A stretch of 31,179 nt of DNA from a virus (taxonomy: Duplodnaviria; Heunggongvirae; Uroviricota; Caudoviricetes), in the IMG/VR virus record IMGVR_UViG_2609459857_000004, positions 1 to 31,179 of that record; one strand, written 5' to 3'. The notes below the pieces were generated by a model. That model was given only the letters and a program-made list of their open reading frames with translations, did no database searches and was not told where the DNA came from. Every line of letters begins with the position of its first letter. The stretch's first letter is position 1. Of this stretch, positions 1,307-16,081 are shown one piece after another. A program made the translations under genes and the position numbers.

Positions 1307-3763
1307 TTAAAAATCAACCGGATTCGGGATCAATTTTTGCCAGATTGCTGAAACGTATTTTGCCTGGTGATTGGCGTCATCCAGTGCATTGTGGGGTACA
1401 CCTTCGAACGGGATAGCTGTTCTGGCATCAAAACCGATGGTTTTTCCCAGTTCAACAATTGTGCGCACGTCGCGATCGTTGCAGTAACGCCACGGGCAGG
1501 GGATCCCCTGCCGTTCATATGAACGGCGTAAAATTGCGTTGTCGAAAGTTGCACCATTGCCCCATACCTGCACGAATTTTTCATCTGAATGCTCGCTGAT
1601 GAATTCCCTGAATTGCAGCAGCGCATCATCTAATGGGATTTGATTTACCAAAATTGCAGATCTGACCTCGCTGGACTGCACCAGCCACCATTCGATTGTG
1701 CTTATGTCGACAGTGCCGCCACCGGTTTTTGCATCAATCGTTTTGCTGAACTCCGGCCCCATCTCTCCGGTTTCGGGATCAAAAAATTTACCGCCAATAG
1801 AGTTGATTGGTGCATCAGGGTTTGTTCCCATCGTTTCAAGGTCGACCGAAAGATGATTCCATACTCTGCTGGTGGATGTGATAACGTGATGACTGTTCAC
1901 CGTAATTAAGGGATCCGCCGTCTCGCCAGTTTCACTATCGCTGGCGTTGTCCTGAGCGCTGCCAGCATTCTCCTTGTGTGGATGTTCAGCGCCTTCCATT
2001 TCCTCCGGATCATTTTCCTGAACTTCAACCTGATTCTCTTCATTGAATGTTTCCTGGTATGTTGCGTCGCCCATCACCGCGCCACAATCAGGGCAGTTGC
2101 CGCCACCGCTCTGACCGCAGGCGGTGCAGACTTTTTCCGGTTCCTGTTGCGCTACTGGTTCGGATTGTTTCGTTTCTGGCTCGTTTTGTAACGCATTTGA
2201 GCTGTTTTGTTCCTCTTTCTGGTCGTTCTGTTCCGTTTCTTGCTGGTTCTGGTTCACAGAATCGCGGGTTTCAATCCCCTTCACCCATTTCGGATCATTC
2301 GGGTCGCTAATCCCTGCAACAAATTCACCGCGAGAGGCCGCAAGCAACTTATCGGCGTCAGGCTGGCTGATATTGGCTGCCTGCATAATTTTGTTTACTT
2401 CGTCAGCGGTAACTTTTACCTGATTAACTGGATCTATCTGTGCCTGAGCATCCAGCGATTGCGTGTCCTGGCGATGTTCAGTTGTATCCGGTTCCATTGT
2501 TTCAGCCGTTGCCTGTTCATCTGCCATTGCGTCAGACGGTTGTGATTTTTCCTCATTATTTTTTTCTTCTTCTGTCTCGCGTTCAGCAGCCAGTTCGCGG
2601 TTAACTTCTTCCAGGATATCTTTTTCCGGTGTATGTCGTGCAGCAGCGAGAGTTTCCTCGGTAGGGTTCTCGTGATCAGTCTCCGTTAAATAGGCGTTGA
2701 TATACCCCTGAAGGCGTCCCGGGTAATGATAAAACTCAGGGTGTGCGCTCCGGATAAGTGCAAAAATAGCGGCGCGGGAATAATCCAGGATACCCGGGAT
2801 TGCGCGAAGTGCTGCGGACCATTCTTTGAACGGACTTTCTTTCTTCTGGACGACTTCTTTTGCGCGACGATAAACGCTGCCCGGAATTTCATAAATATTA
2901 AAATCCATCGGAAGTGTGGCCGCTGCAATCTCCACATCCAGCGTATCGAAGGTGTGTACTAAATTCGGATTGCGATCGGTTTTGTTCCCTCCACCGGCAT
3001 TAGCGCCGGAAGCCGTGCGGGTGATACGAGAAACACGATTTCCTTTCATCCACTCTTTTGTCAGCAGACCGCGATCGGTGTAGTCAGCGCCCAGGTATGC
3101 TTCGAAAAAAGCAGTCATTAGCCCCAGGCCTGAATTGCCAGGATTAGGGAAAACTTTGTCAGTATCACGCACCAGTTTGTGGAGATCGCGAATTTCCAGT
3201 GGATCGAGCAGACTGGTTTTATGCGAAATAGCGAGGGCAGTAACAGCTGGTAGTTCTTCAGCCCGTGCAATGTGTAATGCCTGGAGTTCGTCGCGTGAAA
3301 CGTGCGTTACCGGTTTTTCGCTGCCACGTTGAGCAAGCCAGCGAATGGGCAGTTCCTGACCGGAAACCGGCAGGAGCATGTTCTCCTCAATCTCAGCCAT
3401 GTCTTCGCCGTTGACGTTGGTATTGTCAGTGCTGGCTGGTTTATCCTGAACAGAGGGCGAGGGCGCGATAAGTACCATTGTGATACCATCTTCTCCGCCT
3501 TTTTCGTATCGGTTGCAGAATTCGGTATCAAACACGCCTTCCGGAGGAAGGTCATTCACAACGGGTAAATGGACGCGAACAGGTTTTTTAAAATCCTCTT
3601 CGTCAAATCCGGCATCGTCCATTGCGACAACACCGCGTGATATTGCAACCGATAATTTTTTTGCTGTGCGCCAGTAAAAACCGCCTTTAATCCCAAGACG
3701 TTTTCTGACTTTGTCATTTTTGGCTTCGTAATATAGTGCAATTTCTTCTTTATCAGCGCTCAT
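1307..3763 (-). CDS. RecE-like prophage exonuclease with C-terminal DEDDh (DnaQ-like) 3'-5' exonuclease domain
   Basis: 818-aa ORF with RBS GAGG upstream of ATG; C-terminal ~190 aa carry Exo I (VDLETMG), Exo II ([11 protein letters not shown]) and Exo III (HNALDDA) motifs; N-terminal region recalled as RecE-like, with an acidic low-complexity E/Q/N-rich linker. Confidence 0.65.
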
Positions 3764-3853
3764 TGATAAACCTCATAACCATTTTTAGGGTGAACAAGTC
3801 CCTGCCATTGCTGGCATATAAAAATAAAACCGGATATTTATTACGGTGCTGGT

Positions 3854-4045
3854 TTAAAGCCCTGCCGGGACTTCGTTATTATCCATGCGAATAACTTTAT
3901 CGACCGGATAACAGTTACCGGGAATTTTCTGTTCCGCTGCGGCAGCCATGCATTCTTTCATTGAGCTGTATACGCCAGTAACCGTGTCAACCGGTTCGCC
4001 GGAAACAAGAAAAACCGTCAGAACAAGTGCAAATGTGGTATTCAT
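3854..4045 (-). CDS. small secreted/membrane-anchored hypothetical protein
   Basis: 63 aa from internal ATG (MNTTFALVLTVFLVSG...), hydrophobic N-terminal signal-like segment; ATGA start/stop overlap with upstream ORF. Confidence 0.45.
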   Translation of the reverse strand: MNTTFALVLTVFLVSGEPVDTVTGVYSSMKECMAAAAEQKIPGNCYPVDKVIRMDNNEVPAGL

Positions 4046-4230
4046 TGCCAGTATCCTTTTTGCATCAGACGTAAACGGGCCAGCATTGAAACAATGCATA
4101 TTTGATTTAATAACTCCCGTTCGTGTTTTCTCTTATTAATGGCATCTTCAGTAAATGCAGGGTTACTGATACTGACACCAATTTCAAAACAACCTTCAGA
4201 CGTATTAACGTTTGGTAATAATGTTTCCAT
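4042..4230 (-). CDS. hypothetical early-operon protein
   Basis: 62-aa ORF with GAGGA RBS 8 nt upstream of ATG; translationally coupled to the next ORF. Confidence 0.45.
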   Translation of the reverse strand: METLLPNVNTSEGCFEIGVSISNPAFTEDAINKRKHERELLNQICIVSMLARLRLMQKGYWQ

Positions 4231-4796
4231 TATCGCGTCCTCAACAATGAATTTTGTGATGCGGTGCCTGGTGCCTCCAGGTGACGTTAACCAGTTAACA
4301 ATTAACGCCGGAATACAGGGAAACCAACTCCATAAAACAAATACGGAGTACCGATCACTTTTTTAACTGTTCCGCGTGCGCTGAGCCGCATTCACCGCAT
4401 CACAAAATTCACTTTAAAAAGGGCGGACATCAGCCAGCAATGAAACTGATGCCGCCAAAAGGTAATCAACATGGGTTGTTGCAGCGGGGTTGTCACTTAA
4501 GCGTATGGTCAACCTGACAACCCGGTGTTATCTCGAGGAAAGGATAGCCTCGCCATACTTACCGCCGCGCCATTTCGCGGAGTGCCACAACCGGAAGCGC
4601 ACGGTCGAATTAAATTTAACGACACCGTACAGTGAGACGAACTTCGCCGTGCGCTTTCGCGTTATGCCCTGACTTTTCAGGGATATATCCTTTCAGTAAA
4701 CTGTCAGTGCCGGATGCTCACCCGTGTCCGGCGCACGACCACACGTGGCAGCGTGTTGGTCTCCATTTTTAACCCAGAACCCAAATGGAGGATAAA

Positions 4797-5027
4797 ATGT
4801 CAGAACAATTTAACCCCCTGCGGAGACCTGCCTCAGCAGCACAACAAGTCGTGCTTGAAGTTGTTCGCGCGGGTAAGTTGTACGAAAAACACAACTTTCT
4901 GAACTTTTTACACACATGCTTGACCATTACCGTGCTGAGGCGAAACGCCTGGAGCAGGAAAATAAAGCTCAATAAAAGCTGCTTTAATGATCTGAGCCAG
5001 TATGATTGCTGGCTCTTTTTGTGTTGA
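4797..5027 (+). CDS. hypothetical small protein (possible opposite-strand moron)
   Basis: ATG preceded by GGAGGA at 8 nt; ORF ends just after a plus-strand intrinsic terminator; overlaps convergent minus-strand ORF 4908..5105, so only one may be real. Confidence 0.3.
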   Translation: MSEQFNPLRRPASAAQQVVLEVVRAGKLYEKHNFLNFLHTCLTITVLRRNAWSRKIKLNKSCFNDLSQYDCWLFLC

Positions 5028-5105
5028 ATCCAGGTCTGCTAATTTTTGACGAAGACAGTCTGCAGCTATAACCTGCAAATCTGCAGGTAAATCTTTAAAT
5101 TCCAT
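4908..5105 (-). CDS. hypothetical small protein
   Basis: 65-aa ORF with GAGG RBS 8 nt upstream; N-terminal 45 aa look protein-like; 3' end overlaps the plus-strand ORF and terminator. Confidence 0.3.
   Translation of the reverse strand: MEFKDLPADLQVIAADCLRQKLADLDSTQKEPAIILAQIIKAAFIELYFPAPGVSPQHGNGQACV
4994..5022 (+). terminator. rho-independent terminator (plus strand)
   Basis: 7-bp stem GAGCCAG/CTGGCTC with 8-nt loop followed by TTTTTGTGTT. Confidence 0.5.
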
Positions 5106-5127
5106 TATTAGCCTCGTTGGTTAGCTA

Positions 5128-5346
5128 TTAACGCGGGTATGTAATCATTCTGGCAATGCTTAATGCCGCTGCTTTTTCCAGCTTGGTTATATCTTTTTCC
5201 AGAGCGGACAGATTTTCAGCCTGCTTAGCCCTGGCTTCATTGGCCCATTTCAGATCCTGCGCTGCATTAATTTTCTGGCGCATCCACTCATAAAGTTCAT
5301 CATCGGTATAGTCTGGCGCGATGATGACGGGTTCTCGTTTCTGCAT
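5128..5346 (-). CDS. hypothetical early-operon protein
   Basis: 72-aa ORF, GAGGA RBS 7 nt upstream of ATG, charged helical composition. Confidence 0.45.
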   Translation of the reverse strand: MQKREPVIIAPDYTDDELYEWMRQKINAAQDLKWANEARAKQAENLSALEKDITKLEKAAALSIARMITYPR

Positions 5347-5375
5347 ACTGATTCCTCGCGGTGCTGCTTCGCTTA

Positions 5376-5504
5376 TCAGCCGTTAGATTTTGCCGAGCTG
5401 GAAAGCGCCTGTTTAAACTCACTGAAGCTGAGAGCTTCTTCGCCTTCGGCAAGGCCTTCGAAGTATTCTTCGTAAGCCTTTTCCATGATTGCGTCGAAAT
5501 CCAT
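5376..5504 (-). CDS. hypothetical small acidic protein (42 aa)
   Basis: ATG 5504 lies 2 nt downstream of the stop of the preceding 51-aa ORF (TGATATGG junction); the track's 98-aa reading in this frame has a poorly spaced RBS. Confidence 0.3.
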   Translation of the reverse strand: MDFDAIMEKAYEEYFEGLAEGEEALSFSEFKQALSSSAKSNG

Positions 5505-5505
5505 A

Positions 5506-5661
5506 TCACTCACCTGAATTTCTTTCCAGCCAGCGACGCGCGCCAGATTCGGTTTTAAACGTTTTGCTTTTGGTATACGTCGTCGCGGTGAATGTGCCGT
5601 CCTGGTTGGGAAACACGCCACACACCAGAGATTCGTTGTTGCCAAGATCGATAGTATCCAT
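5506..5661 (-). CDS. hypothetical small protein (51 aa), first gene of leftward operon
   Basis: ATG 5661 with GAGG RBS 6 nt upstream; below the 60-aa cutoff of the track; translated manually (MDTIDLGNNESLVCGVF...). Confidence 0.35.
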   Translation of the reverse strand: MDTIDLGNNESLVCGVFPNQDGTFTATTYTKSKTFKTESGARRWLERNSGE

Positions 5662-5728
5662 GTTGACCTCATTTCCCCTTAACGCCGGGGTAGCGGAACT
5701 TTAGCCTGACAACGATGCGGTTCGTTGA

Positions 5729-5780
5729 TGGAATTACTTTACAATAATTACTTTCATTGTCAAGTGTTGATTGAAAGAAA
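5729..5780 (-). promoter_or_regulatory. candidate leftward early promoter (pL-like) with operator motif TTGAAAGAAA
   Basis: On the minus strand TTGACA (5763..5758), 16-nt spacer, TAAAGT (5741..5736); operator-like TTGAAAGAAA at 5771-5780 directly upstream. Confidence 0.4.
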
Positions 5781-5836
5781 TGCTGAAAGCAGCCGTATGA
5801 CTGCTTAGATAGATATGAGGAGACTGTGCTTAGGAA

Positions 5837-6253
5837 TTATTTCTGGTGGGACTGAATCATGCTCAAGACATCGCCTTTGAGTTGCTCCAGTTCTTCTATC
5901 TGAGATTTAATAGAAATAAGCAAGCGTAGTTTTTCTGTTTCCGGTAACTGATTGAAAAGTGAAAGCAAAAGCTTTTCATTGTCATCCAGTTCTCGTCCGG
6001 AAAAAGTCTCAGCATGAAGCTCCCCCTGTGCTGTTGAATCTGGTGACATGAAAAACCAGTGTTCTGCTTTACCTGCTGCCGCGGCTAGGCGTTTTAGCCC
6101 TTGCCCTCTGGGAAGAGATTTACCTTTAGCCCATTGCTGGACGGCTTGCGGAGATACCATCGCGTGCTTGGCTATGTCGGATAAGTTCCAGTTTTTTTCG
6201 TCCTGCAACAGCTTTAGGCGGTAAACAAGATTTGGGTGTTTTACGTTGTCCAT
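5837..6253 (-). CDS. prophage repressor, HTH XRE-family (DicA/CI-like, no peptidase domain)
   Basis: 138-aa ORF with N-terminal HTH-like segment (LSDIAKHAMVSPQAVQQWAKGKSLP); divergent from a Cro-like gene across an operator-bearing intergenic region; no strong SD. Confidence 0.75.
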   Translation of the reverse strand: MDNVKHPNLVYRLKLLQDEKNWNLSDIAKHAMVSPQAVQQWAKGKSLPRGQGLKRLAAAAGKAEHWFFMSPDSTAQGELHAETFSGRELDDNEKLLLSLFNQLPETEKLRLLISIKSQIEELEQLKGDVLSMIQSHQK

Positions 6254-6361
6254 TTAGTCATTTTACAAGCTTTGCTTTCATATGGCATTGGAATTGTTTT
6301 AATGTTGCTATTGAAAGAAAATCTTTTTTGATGTAGAAATTCTTTCAATATGGAGGTGTAA
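6254..6361. promoter_or_regulatory. immunity switch region: divergent promoters and operators
   Basis: TTGAAAGAA (6311-6319) and inverted copy TTCTTTCAA (6340-6348) flank a candidate rightward promoter TTGAAA-17-TAGAAA; GGAGG RBS precedes the Cro-like ATG at 6362. Confidence 0.55.
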
Positions 6362-6640
6362 ATGAGTCACGTTTTGAAAAGCAAGATTACGAAAATCATG
6401 AATCAATCAGAAATTGCTAAACATCTAGGAGTTAAGTCTCAGGCTGTAAGTGGATGGCTCAACTTCACTGGGGTTATACCAGCAGATCGAGTCATTCCAT
6501 TGAGTCGAGTTCTTGACTGGCAAGTTACTCCCCACGAACTTCGCCCTGACATTTATCCCAACCCAACAGATGGACTACCTTGTGAAAATAAGTGTATGTC
6601 GAATGAATCACTGGCGGTGAACAATGATATTCACTCCTGA
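6362..6640 (+). CDS. Cro-like / YdaS-family HTH regulator
   Basis: 92-aa ORF with GGAGG RBS; HTH-like SEIAKHLGVKSQAVSGW and an ELRPDI motif recalled from YdaS-type Cro proteins; divergent from the repressor. Confidence 0.65.
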   Translation: MSHVLKSKITKIMNQSEIAKHLGVKSQAVSGWLNFTGVIPADRVIPLSRVLDWQVTPHELRPDIYPNPTDGLPCENKCMSNESLAVNNDIHS

Positions 6641-15927: not shown

Positions 15928-16000
15928 GCCGATTTAACTTAGCAGACAAAGCAACTGACTTGTAATCACCGGGTCGCCAGTTCGATTCCGGTAATCGGCA
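15928..16000 (+). tRNA. tRNA-like gene, anticodon UGU (Thr) with weak D and anticodon stems (possible pseudo-tRNA)
   Basis: 7-bp acceptor stem GCCGATT/AATCGGC, T-loop TTCGATT, anticodon loop CTTGTAA at canonical positions 32-38; anticodon stem only 3 of 5 pairs; followed by CTA not CCA. Confidence 0.4.
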
Positions 16001-16006
16001 CTATAT

Positions 16007-16081
<75 letters not shown>

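Follow-up and report, generated by a model that had tools for sequence, protein, structure and literature searches.

The morons of lambdoid phages were reportedly set out by Juhala et al. in 2000. Two other kinds of locus bear comparison with the one described here: the OOP RNA of phage lambda, a non-coding RNA of 77 nucleotides (nt), and the type I toxin-antitoxin loci (hok/sok and similar), in which a small hydrophobic, membrane-active toxin peptide is paired with a small antisense RNA. The moron concept has been reviewed (PMC3594210), and loci that are antisense in orientation and have their own transcription mark out the accessory genes of prophages (PMC7067206). In Escherichia coli K-12, the Qin prophage has a dicBF operon, which comprises a DicA-like repressor, ydfA, ydfB, ydfC, a long untranslated region, DicF and dicB (PMC5069750, PMC10448788), and its ydfC-dicF region is the source of a DicF precursor that RNase III and RNase E process (PMC10448788). 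The present work concerns two small open reading frames (ORFs) that overlap on opposite strands at positions 4797-5105 of the IMG/VR virus record IMGVR_UViG_2609459857_000004 (Caudoviricetes), the whole analysed stretch of 31,179 nt being referred to as the window. This part of the window belongs to a lambdoid E. coli prophage, of which it is the early-left (dicBF-type) operon, running on the minus strand. The locus probably consists of two real small protein genes, lying tail to tail with overlapping 3' ends, of which the plus gene is a self-contained moron and the minus gene an ordinary gene of the operon. The features of the pair are as follows (aa, amino acids).

4674-4702, plus strand: predicted sigma-70 promoter, from a position weight matrix (PWM), with -35 TTTTCA at 4674-4679, a 17-nt spacer and -10 TAAACT at 4697-4702
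4709-4796, plus strand: structured 5' leader of 88 nt, with hairpins at 4709-4732, 4737-4761 and 4762-4789
4797-5027, plus strand: plus ORF as read in the window, from the ORF list (76 aa; alternative start at 4785)
4797-4975, plus strand: plus gene as read in the native frame; relatives have 59 codons (MSEQ...ENKAQ), and the stop TAA lies at 4973-4975
4885-4889, plus strand: A5 homopolymer, site of a 1-nt deletion seen as an alignment gap (A6 in relatives)
4908-4975, both strands: stretch shared by the two frames when the alleles are intact, 68 nt in the window and 29-71 nt in relatives
4908-5105, minus strand: minus gene, 65 aa, the third small operon gene after ydfB and ydfC
4994-5020, plus strand: intrinsic terminator of the plus unit, from a site scan and fold, with its stem-loop at 4994-5015 and T-run at 5016-5020

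Like a moron, the plus unit is an independent unit with its own predicted promoter and terminator (PMC3594210). It is placed between genes that are adjacent in K-12 Qin, with a GC content below that of its flanks, and it opposes the surrounding lytic operon, an orientation typical of prophage accessory loci (PMC7067206). Its own terminator is found as a nine-pair hairpin followed by T5, with G.U pairs specific to the plus strand, and its presence or absence between adjacent genes is seen in the comparison with K-12 Qin, in the locus L002 and in its occurrence in 9 of 5426 complete E. coli genomes. Yet the 3' end and terminator of the unit lie within the coding sequence of its neighbour rather than in intergenic DNA, in an overlap that is deeply conserved, and its 5' leader is common to at least eight unrelated ORFs; its expression here is predicted. 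An earlier examination of the letters alone (the sequence-only reading) had suggested an opposite-orientation moron, and this is supported by a conserved -10-like hexamer, a ribosome-binding site (RBS), a coding ORF, a terminator of its own, the orientation against the operon and the absence from K-12 Qin. The arrangement is a further example of this known type of phage add-on gene and offers no new mechanism.

Both ORFs, both RBSs, their 120-bp overlap (4908-5027) and a strong plus-strand terminator are present in the sequence as that reading described them. The plus RBS, GGAGGA at 4787-4792, stands 4 nt ahead of the ATG at 4797, and the minus RBS, GAGG (CCTC at 5112-5115 on the plus strand), 6 nt ahead of the start codon at 5105-5103. 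The plus ORF of 76-80 codons found in the window is, judged by alignment, a frameshift product. Compared base by base with a 99%-identical relative (L001), the window has A5 instead of A6 at 4885-4889, and the 321-nt cassette, used as a query, spans 322 nt in all nine matching complete E. coli genomes. Restoration of the sixth A yields a 59-codon ORF that ends 18 nt ahead of the terminator, and the repaired product equals P0001, found on 149 contigs, with close variants on many more. Strains that carry the intact allele include E. coli VTB97432v (NZ_CP178694.1, 2152700-2153020) and STEC316. This repaired frame is taken as the native one because the segment past the shift (FTHMLDHYRAEAKRLEQENKAQ) corresponds to the C-terminal motif that the family conserves. 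The frame read in the window retains just the first ~30 residues of the protein that matches the family phrog_17494, and the exact 76-aa product was absent from a collection of 15 billion proteins. It is the one-base deletion in the A-run, shifting the frame, that carries the window ORF through its own terminator to 5027.

The window copy of the plus gene is thus either a pseudogene or the outcome of a homopolymer sequencing error. That the frameshift is not biological, A5 being an assembly miscall from a source strain with an intact plus gene, is possible, if on balance doubtful: the difference is one base in a homopolymer, the exact A5 allele was met nowhere else and the remaining cassette is 99% identical to intact copies, but this gene is known in genuinely broken forms, both frameshifted and nonsense, one of which occurs on at least 11 contigs and carries substitutions of its own. 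Programmed slippage at the A-run was rejected, since the relatives encode the protein in a single frame and the run is too short; five A's make a shorter run than those known to cause slippage.

On comparative evidence, deep relatives settle that both frames are genes. Homologues of the plus protein were sought by a full HMMER scan of 1.84 billion representatives (50%-identity library) at E <= 1e-3, which returned 13 matches, namely ten new family members (P0041-P0050) and three frameshifted close variants (P0004-P0006). The new members are 38-52% identical to the plus protein, nine of them having 57-64 aa and one 76 aa. The deep DNA sample consisted of the loci of seven plus homologues that were fetched, while L107 and L108 came through a scan for the leader pattern. 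Both ORFs are intact in 11 of 11 diverged lineages (~40% identity), with overlaps of 29-71 nt, and in each a minus ORF of 52-68 aa with the start motif M.F.ELP lies over the plus 3' end; gene callers likewise place a convergent overlapping ORF of 60-68 aa beside all seven distant plus homologues. These deep-lineage loci belong to lambdoid or P22-like prophages, where the neighbours are an N peptide, gp17, ERF/Rad52/RecE recombinases, KilR and YdaE.

Each protein also belongs to a family of its own. Residues 5-62 of the repaired plus protein match positions 1-58 of 59 of phrog_17494, in effect its full length (E 1.2e-17), and residues 1-53 of the minus protein match positions 1-56 of 64 of phrog_9419 (E 9.8e-17). 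Codon use was surveyed at those residues that 7 or more of 9 lineages conserve. P10 of the plus gene is encoded by four synonymous codons, R29 by three, A30 by four and T44 by four, with G also varied; in the minus gene P7, A14 and L18 are each encoded by three, with F and I also varied. Since conserved residues use varied synonymous codons in both genes, selection appears to act at the amino-acid level in both frames. The caution of the sequence-only reading that at most one frame may be real is therefore not sustained, with both products in PHROG families at E ~1e-17, both frames intact in 11/11 lineages and synonymous codons diverse in both. It had proposed that the pair would fall if one frame only were conserved with a bias to synonymous change; the comparison comes out against such a single-frame reading, the exception being a tail of ~17 minus codons.

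That tail lies where the two genes overlap. Natively the two share 68 nt, which falls to 56 nt where a minus ORF of 61 aa is found, and within this overlap the plus frame, as far as alignments tell, dominates, the last ~17 minus codons being a passenger tail. Across eight deep lineages the mean pairwise identity of the plus protein is 0.41 outside the overlap and 0.38 inside it, and that of the minus protein is 0.40 in the domain and 0.25 in the tail. Among close relatives, all six variable sites in 4908-4975 alter the minus protein, and two of them are silent in the plus frame. The conserved minus domain covers codons 1-51 (~5105-4953), about 50 residues with the pattern M.F.ELP...EP..LA...AFI.LY, and codons 49-65 (~17) form the unconstrained tail, which runs antisense through the plus gene and has a drifting stop position (52-68 aa). 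A weak minus-strand terminator-like hairpin is found at 4828-4812 (-), just past the minus ORF and within the 5' part of the plus gene.

An unconstrained tail would also be expected if the plus ORF were the sole gene and the minus ORF a functionless stump left by the decay of some longer early-left gene (212 aa in L002). In keeping with this, the minus ORF equals the N-terminal domain alone of longer proteins, its omega is near 1 in some close comparisons and its stop moves. The domain (MEFKDLP...LY) stands at the head of proteins that range from 52 to 216 aa and have unrelated C-termini (as at L002 2308-2946 (-)), as if a constant N-terminal module had its C-terminal parts exchanged; its 50 N-terminal residues also match phrog_1363, phrog_33007, phrog_2151 and phrog_6937. 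A stump is nevertheless improbable. In its short form the ORF is unbroken in 11 of 11 lineages at ~40% identity, which are too diverged for a frame to have stayed open by chance, and its residues are conserved while their synonymous codons vary. The ORF has its own RBS and is in register in the operon, sharing the strand of ydfC and DicF and lying between them, with a 22-nt gap after ydfC. Its protein occurs on several hundred contigs, is exactly identical to WP_033873263.1 of E. coli and shares 52% identity over 52 aa with the homologue in L107 (E 6e-16).

The converse possibility is that the minus ORF is the sole gene and that the plus strand gives a non-coding antisense RNA, as OOP does against cII, the plus ORF being incidental. 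The locus resembles lambda OOP/cII: a convergent transcript covers the 3' end of a gene in a phage regulatory region (PMC7067206), a terminator hairpin lies within the coding sequence of that gene, and the geometry permits antisense pairing and RNase III cleavage. In favour of this possibility, the plus ORF is broken in the window, in a second E. coli lineage and in the Salmonella loci L004-L007, the Prokaryotic Genome Annotation Pipeline (PGAP) leaves it unannotated, a consensus-like promoter at 4769-4798 would start after the ATG, and the conservation of leader and terminator could suit an RNA no less than an mRNA. This reading is quite improbable all the same, because the length of the ORF (57-64 codons in most) and its frame are kept at 38-52% identity, conserved residues are spelled with three to four synonymous codons, the GGAGGA Shine-Dalgarno sequence has the correct spacing and behind the shared leader no fewer than eight unrelated ORFs start from one and the same ATG. 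In a comparison of five close lineages of 80-93% amino-acid identity, where 13 or fewer substitutions were counted per comparison, the plus frame had the lowest omega (~0.2) of the three plus-strand frames, with pairwise values of 0.15-0.31 over 37 non-overlapping codons against 0.7-3.1 in the other two. Among the intact close lineages, 10 of the 15 variable sites in the plus gene fall at codon position 3 (p = 0.0085). The predicted transcript here is ~310 nt with a conserved ORF, and the locus is early-left, whereas OOP is early-right; the lack of conserved coding capacity that marks an RNA of the OOP type is not what omega and the synonymous-codon diversity show.

What stands of the suggestion of a sense/antisense pair is its geometry, whereby the last ~115 nt of the plus transcript (4908-5022), if it ended at the terminator, would be complementary to the minus ORF. 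A RyhB-like Rfam match at 4974-5021 (18 bits, E 1.8) was set aside as noise. Pas small RNAs (sRNAs) and the anti-sRNAs of enterohaemorrhagic E. coli were considered as equivalents and rejected, as they map to late or nin regions and not to this locus, and no description of the pair was found in the literature searched.

Least probable is a module of the type I toxin-antitoxin kind, in which a leader-silenced plus mRNA would encode a small toxin under antisense control from the other strand: it would account for a small ORF after a highly structured leader whose third hairpin is predicted to cover the RBS (similar ones being predicted for several relatives), for the extensive sense/antisense overlap and for the repeated inactivating mutations expected of a toxic gene, but the plus protein is not a small hydrophobic, membrane-active peptide, being hydrophilic (grand average of hydropathy, GRAVY, -0.76; maximum 19-residue hydropathy 0.45) and modelled by AlphaFold2 as two soluble helices without a membrane segment (a prediction with a predicted local distance difference test score, pLDDT, of 78), the overlapping partner is an operon protein gene, no dedicated small antisense RNA gene was found and no Rfam match at 4700-5110, neither PADLOC, Pfam nor NCBIfam gave a match, and many unrelated ORFs are driven by this one leader. 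Comparison of the model with the PDB by Foldseek, and a PDB sequence search, came up empty, neither protein having a match there, and no meaningful match was obtained from Pfam, NCBIfam or PADLOC for the minus protein or the proteins of the sister cassettes either.

The stem of the plus-unit terminator has nine pairs, five of them G-C, and a 4-nt loop, and is followed by TTTTTGTGTT; it is the strongest of six sites in 3700-6500, where shuffles average 3.1. On the minus strand the hairpin is followed by AGAUCAUUAAAG, with no U-tract, so that it should terminate plus-strand transcripts only. The sequence-only reading had placed the terminator within the overlap, and it does lie inside the minus gene and inside the plus ORF as read in the window. 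Relative to the native gene this placement does not hold, since the plus stop at 4973-4975 lies upstream, within the minus gene but outside the native plus ORF being the position of the hairpin; because the intact gene stops 18 nt earlier, the terminator sits after the plus gene and not in it. In the minus protein these bases are read as residues EPAIILAQ (codons 30-37).

This hairpin is conserved. The element G(A/G)GCCAG...CTGGCTC is found 17-20 nt past the plus stop in all 12 of the loci listed, and in 14 related sequences 95.2% of cells are paired. The variation that occurs consists of A-U to G.U in three sequences, G-C to G.U in one and one compensatory change from G-C to A-U, and the G.U pairs fit the plus-strand RNA alone, as they become C.A mismatches in the minus-strand RNA. 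The sole broken core pair is that of a Salmonella lineage whose plus gene is already a pseudogene. The arm codons, which read E-P and L-A in the minus frame, are nearly fixed (GAG in 8/8, CCA in 8/9 and CTG in 8/9). That the hairpin is conserved merely as a by-product of the EP..LA motif was considered and rejected, for the synonymous positions of the arms are fixed while such positions vary elsewhere, L138 keeps the hairpin with its codon register shifted and the G.U pairs suit the plus strand only. Terminator scans recovered the site in L140, L132 and L138; in L135, where the T-tract is short, the scan did not recover it. In L132, a P22-like relative, a strong minus-strand terminator at 2870-2890 (-) stands immediately upstream of the predicted -10 of the plus gene, and operon transcripts there would meet it right past the module.

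At its other end the plus unit begins with a leader that is shared far more widely than the gene. The inferred transcription start lies at ~4709. The proposed promoter has a PWM score of 9.8, the second-best in 4380-4830, and a -10-like hexamer (TAAACT, TAAAAT, GATAAT or TGnTATTAT) stands 6-7 nt ahead of hairpin 1 across several unrelated upstream contexts. Folding of 4709-4815 gave a minimum free energy of -37.2 kcal/mol (z = -3.57), and 0 of 200 shuffles were as stable. In the predicted fold, hairpin 3 forms between CUCCAUU and AAUGGAG, covering the Shine-Dalgarno sequence in part. A 23-mer of the leader matches at least 119 IMG/VR contigs, and over 78 distinct sequences the leader shows a per-base conservation of 80-99%, which ends at the ATG. 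After it, at least eight unrelated ORFs of 57-101 aa start at the same ATG (L009-L127, IMG/VR prophage contigs). Each of these ORFs tends toward one particular convergent minus ORF, and many of the latter share the MEFKDLP domain with differing C-termini. No Rfam family matched the leader, the terminator or 4700-5110. The first ~60 nt of the leader also occur, unannotated, in Stx-converting phages. One leader-following ORF of 94 aa (MAKFTVRIELRD..., in L017, L022, L037, L056 and L111) has a weak Pfam match to GhoS (E 1.2e-3; 19.2 bits, just below the cut-off of 21); GhoS is the antitoxin endoribonuclease of a type V toxin-antitoxin system.

The variable cassette site is located between ydfC-like genes and DicF or kil. 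The cassette has a GC content of 41-46%, and its flanks of 50-52%. In L002 a different gene pair, whose minus protein has 212 aa, occupies the place between the same flanks. The dicBF operon of K-12 Qin (L128, NC_000913.3 ~1649030-1649460) has the same backbone as that of the window, and window positions 4472-4737 align to its ydfC-dicF untranslated region; K-12 differs in having no cassette, and the DicF variant of the window falls below the Rfam threshold. As K-12 Qin is without 4738-5100, it has neither ORF, and ydfC leads straight into the dicF leader. It does retain the predicted -10 (TAAACT) and hairpin 1 of the leader; with these kept and the cassette lost, an orphan K-12 promoter may fire antisense into ydfC. 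Neither tblastn of the plus protein and of one distant homologue nor blastn of the cassette gave a match in isolated phage genomes, and a cassette pattern scan of genome contigs found none; two metagenome matches to the cassette pattern (L130, L131) were dismissed as chance, with no alignment past the 22-mer.

Several observations weigh against the reading of two protein genes with a moron on the plus strand. All substitution counts among close relatives are small, at 13 or fewer per comparison. In the same relatives the minus gene shows a weak signal of constraint, with omega of 0.2-1.1 over 43 non-overlapping codons and codon position 3 accounting for 10 of the 22 variable sites (p = 0.16). 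The plus gene has been disrupted several times, including by the A-run deletion of the window, by an independent 1-nt deletion allele that is found on at least 11 contigs with further substitutions of its own, and by two nonsense codons in the Salmonella loci L004-L007; as it is disrupted repeatedly, selection on it is not strong everywhere. Intact Salmonella copies do exist (P0026, on 29 contigs). The promoter, the transcription start and the activity of the terminator are all predictions, and the T-tract after the hairpin is poor in L136, L107 and L135. A strict consensus scan did not call the proposed promoter at 4674-4702, and called instead TTAACC-18-TAAAAT at 4769-4798 (+), which overlaps the plus start codon and recurs in L140. 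If used, this promoter would give an antisense RNA without the plus ORF.

On the reading of two genes, which we still prefer, the plus unit would comprise the predicted promoter, the 88-nt leader, the 59-codon ORF for a hydrophilic two-helix protein and the terminator at 4994-5020. Its own promoter would drive it in the lysogen as long as the operon is repressed, and its transcripts would stop at the terminator that lies within the minus gene. Once the prophage is induced, transcription of the operon would proceed the opposite way, through the hairpin, to DicF and dicB, which its transcripts could reach because the terminator should stop plus-strand transcripts only. Convergent transcription, together with ~115 nt of complementarity, might then make the expression of the two genes mutually exclusive after induction.

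The locus is of interest chiefly for a sequence that is constrained in three ways at once and for the shared leader, which marks a variable site for accessory genes. A single sequence encodes two opposite-strand proteins and, inside one of them, an RNA hairpin, which recommends it as a test case for the scoring of overlapping genes. The annotation also needs correction, since a conserved 59-codon gene lies opposite the minus ORF, and in L001 RefSeq marks the minus ORF alone, as a hypothetical protein, the plus gene being left unannotated there and by PGAP. More broadly, lambdoid and Stx-type prophages appear to hold a variable spot where a shared leader precedes many small proteins, opposite the lytic operon and beside cell-division inhibitors. 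Lysogen-expressed exclusion or defence functions often occur at such sites.

A more speculative proposal, which we put forward tentatively and regard as rather unlikely, is that the promoter and the 88-nt leader form an expression socket at a fixed site of lambdoid prophages, into which small ORFs are exchanged through recombination at the start codon. The constant job of the socket would be to keep leaky operon read-through in lysogens away from kil-type genes, by convergent transcription and antisense RNA, and the variable ORFs would be accessory factors of the lysogen. If so, the site would be one that opposes the early-left operon just upstream of host-killing genes (DicF/dicB here, KilR/YdaE elsewhere), and the variable ORFs might be, for example, exclusion or defence proteins, or neutralisers of the type-matched minus-strand protein. 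The pair of 59 aa and 65 aa would then be the most compact form, its genes locked together by a terminator in which a conserved peptide motif is also encoded.

The operon around the pair is ordered as follows: DicA-like repressor, ydfA, ydfB, ydfC, minus ORF, DicF-like sRNA, dicB, a DUF1482 gene and a RecE-like exonuclease. The neighbours located in the window are these.

5837-6253: DicA-like repressor, operon member
5506-5661: ydfA, operon member
5128-5346, minus strand: ydfC, directly upstream of the minus ORF in the same operon
4421-4471, minus strand: DicF-like sRNA, downstream in the operon (Rfam DicF 34.1 bits, gathering score 48)
4042-4230, minus strand: dicB, after the DicF-like sRNA and annotated as dicB in relatives

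As its Rfam score lies below the gathering score, the DicF-like sRNA of the window is taken to be a divergent DicF variant. The same 1.2 kb is present at 95-97% identity in nine complete E. coli genomes, L001 among them, and the flanks share 95-96% identity with E. coli prophages whose annotated genes are ydfB, ydfC, a hypothetical protein and dicB. The 5' untranslated region of dicB (4253-4409, minus strand) has a sub-threshold match to STnc100 (33.7 bits, threshold 47). Farther away, the RecE-like protein (1307-3763, minus strand) has 818 aa, and its homologue in the closest E. coli relative is annotated with a 3'-5' exoribonuclease domain. Two tRNA genes are also located in the prophage window, at 15928-16000 and 16007-16078 on the plus strand, with Rfam scores of 45.9 and 65.6 bits.

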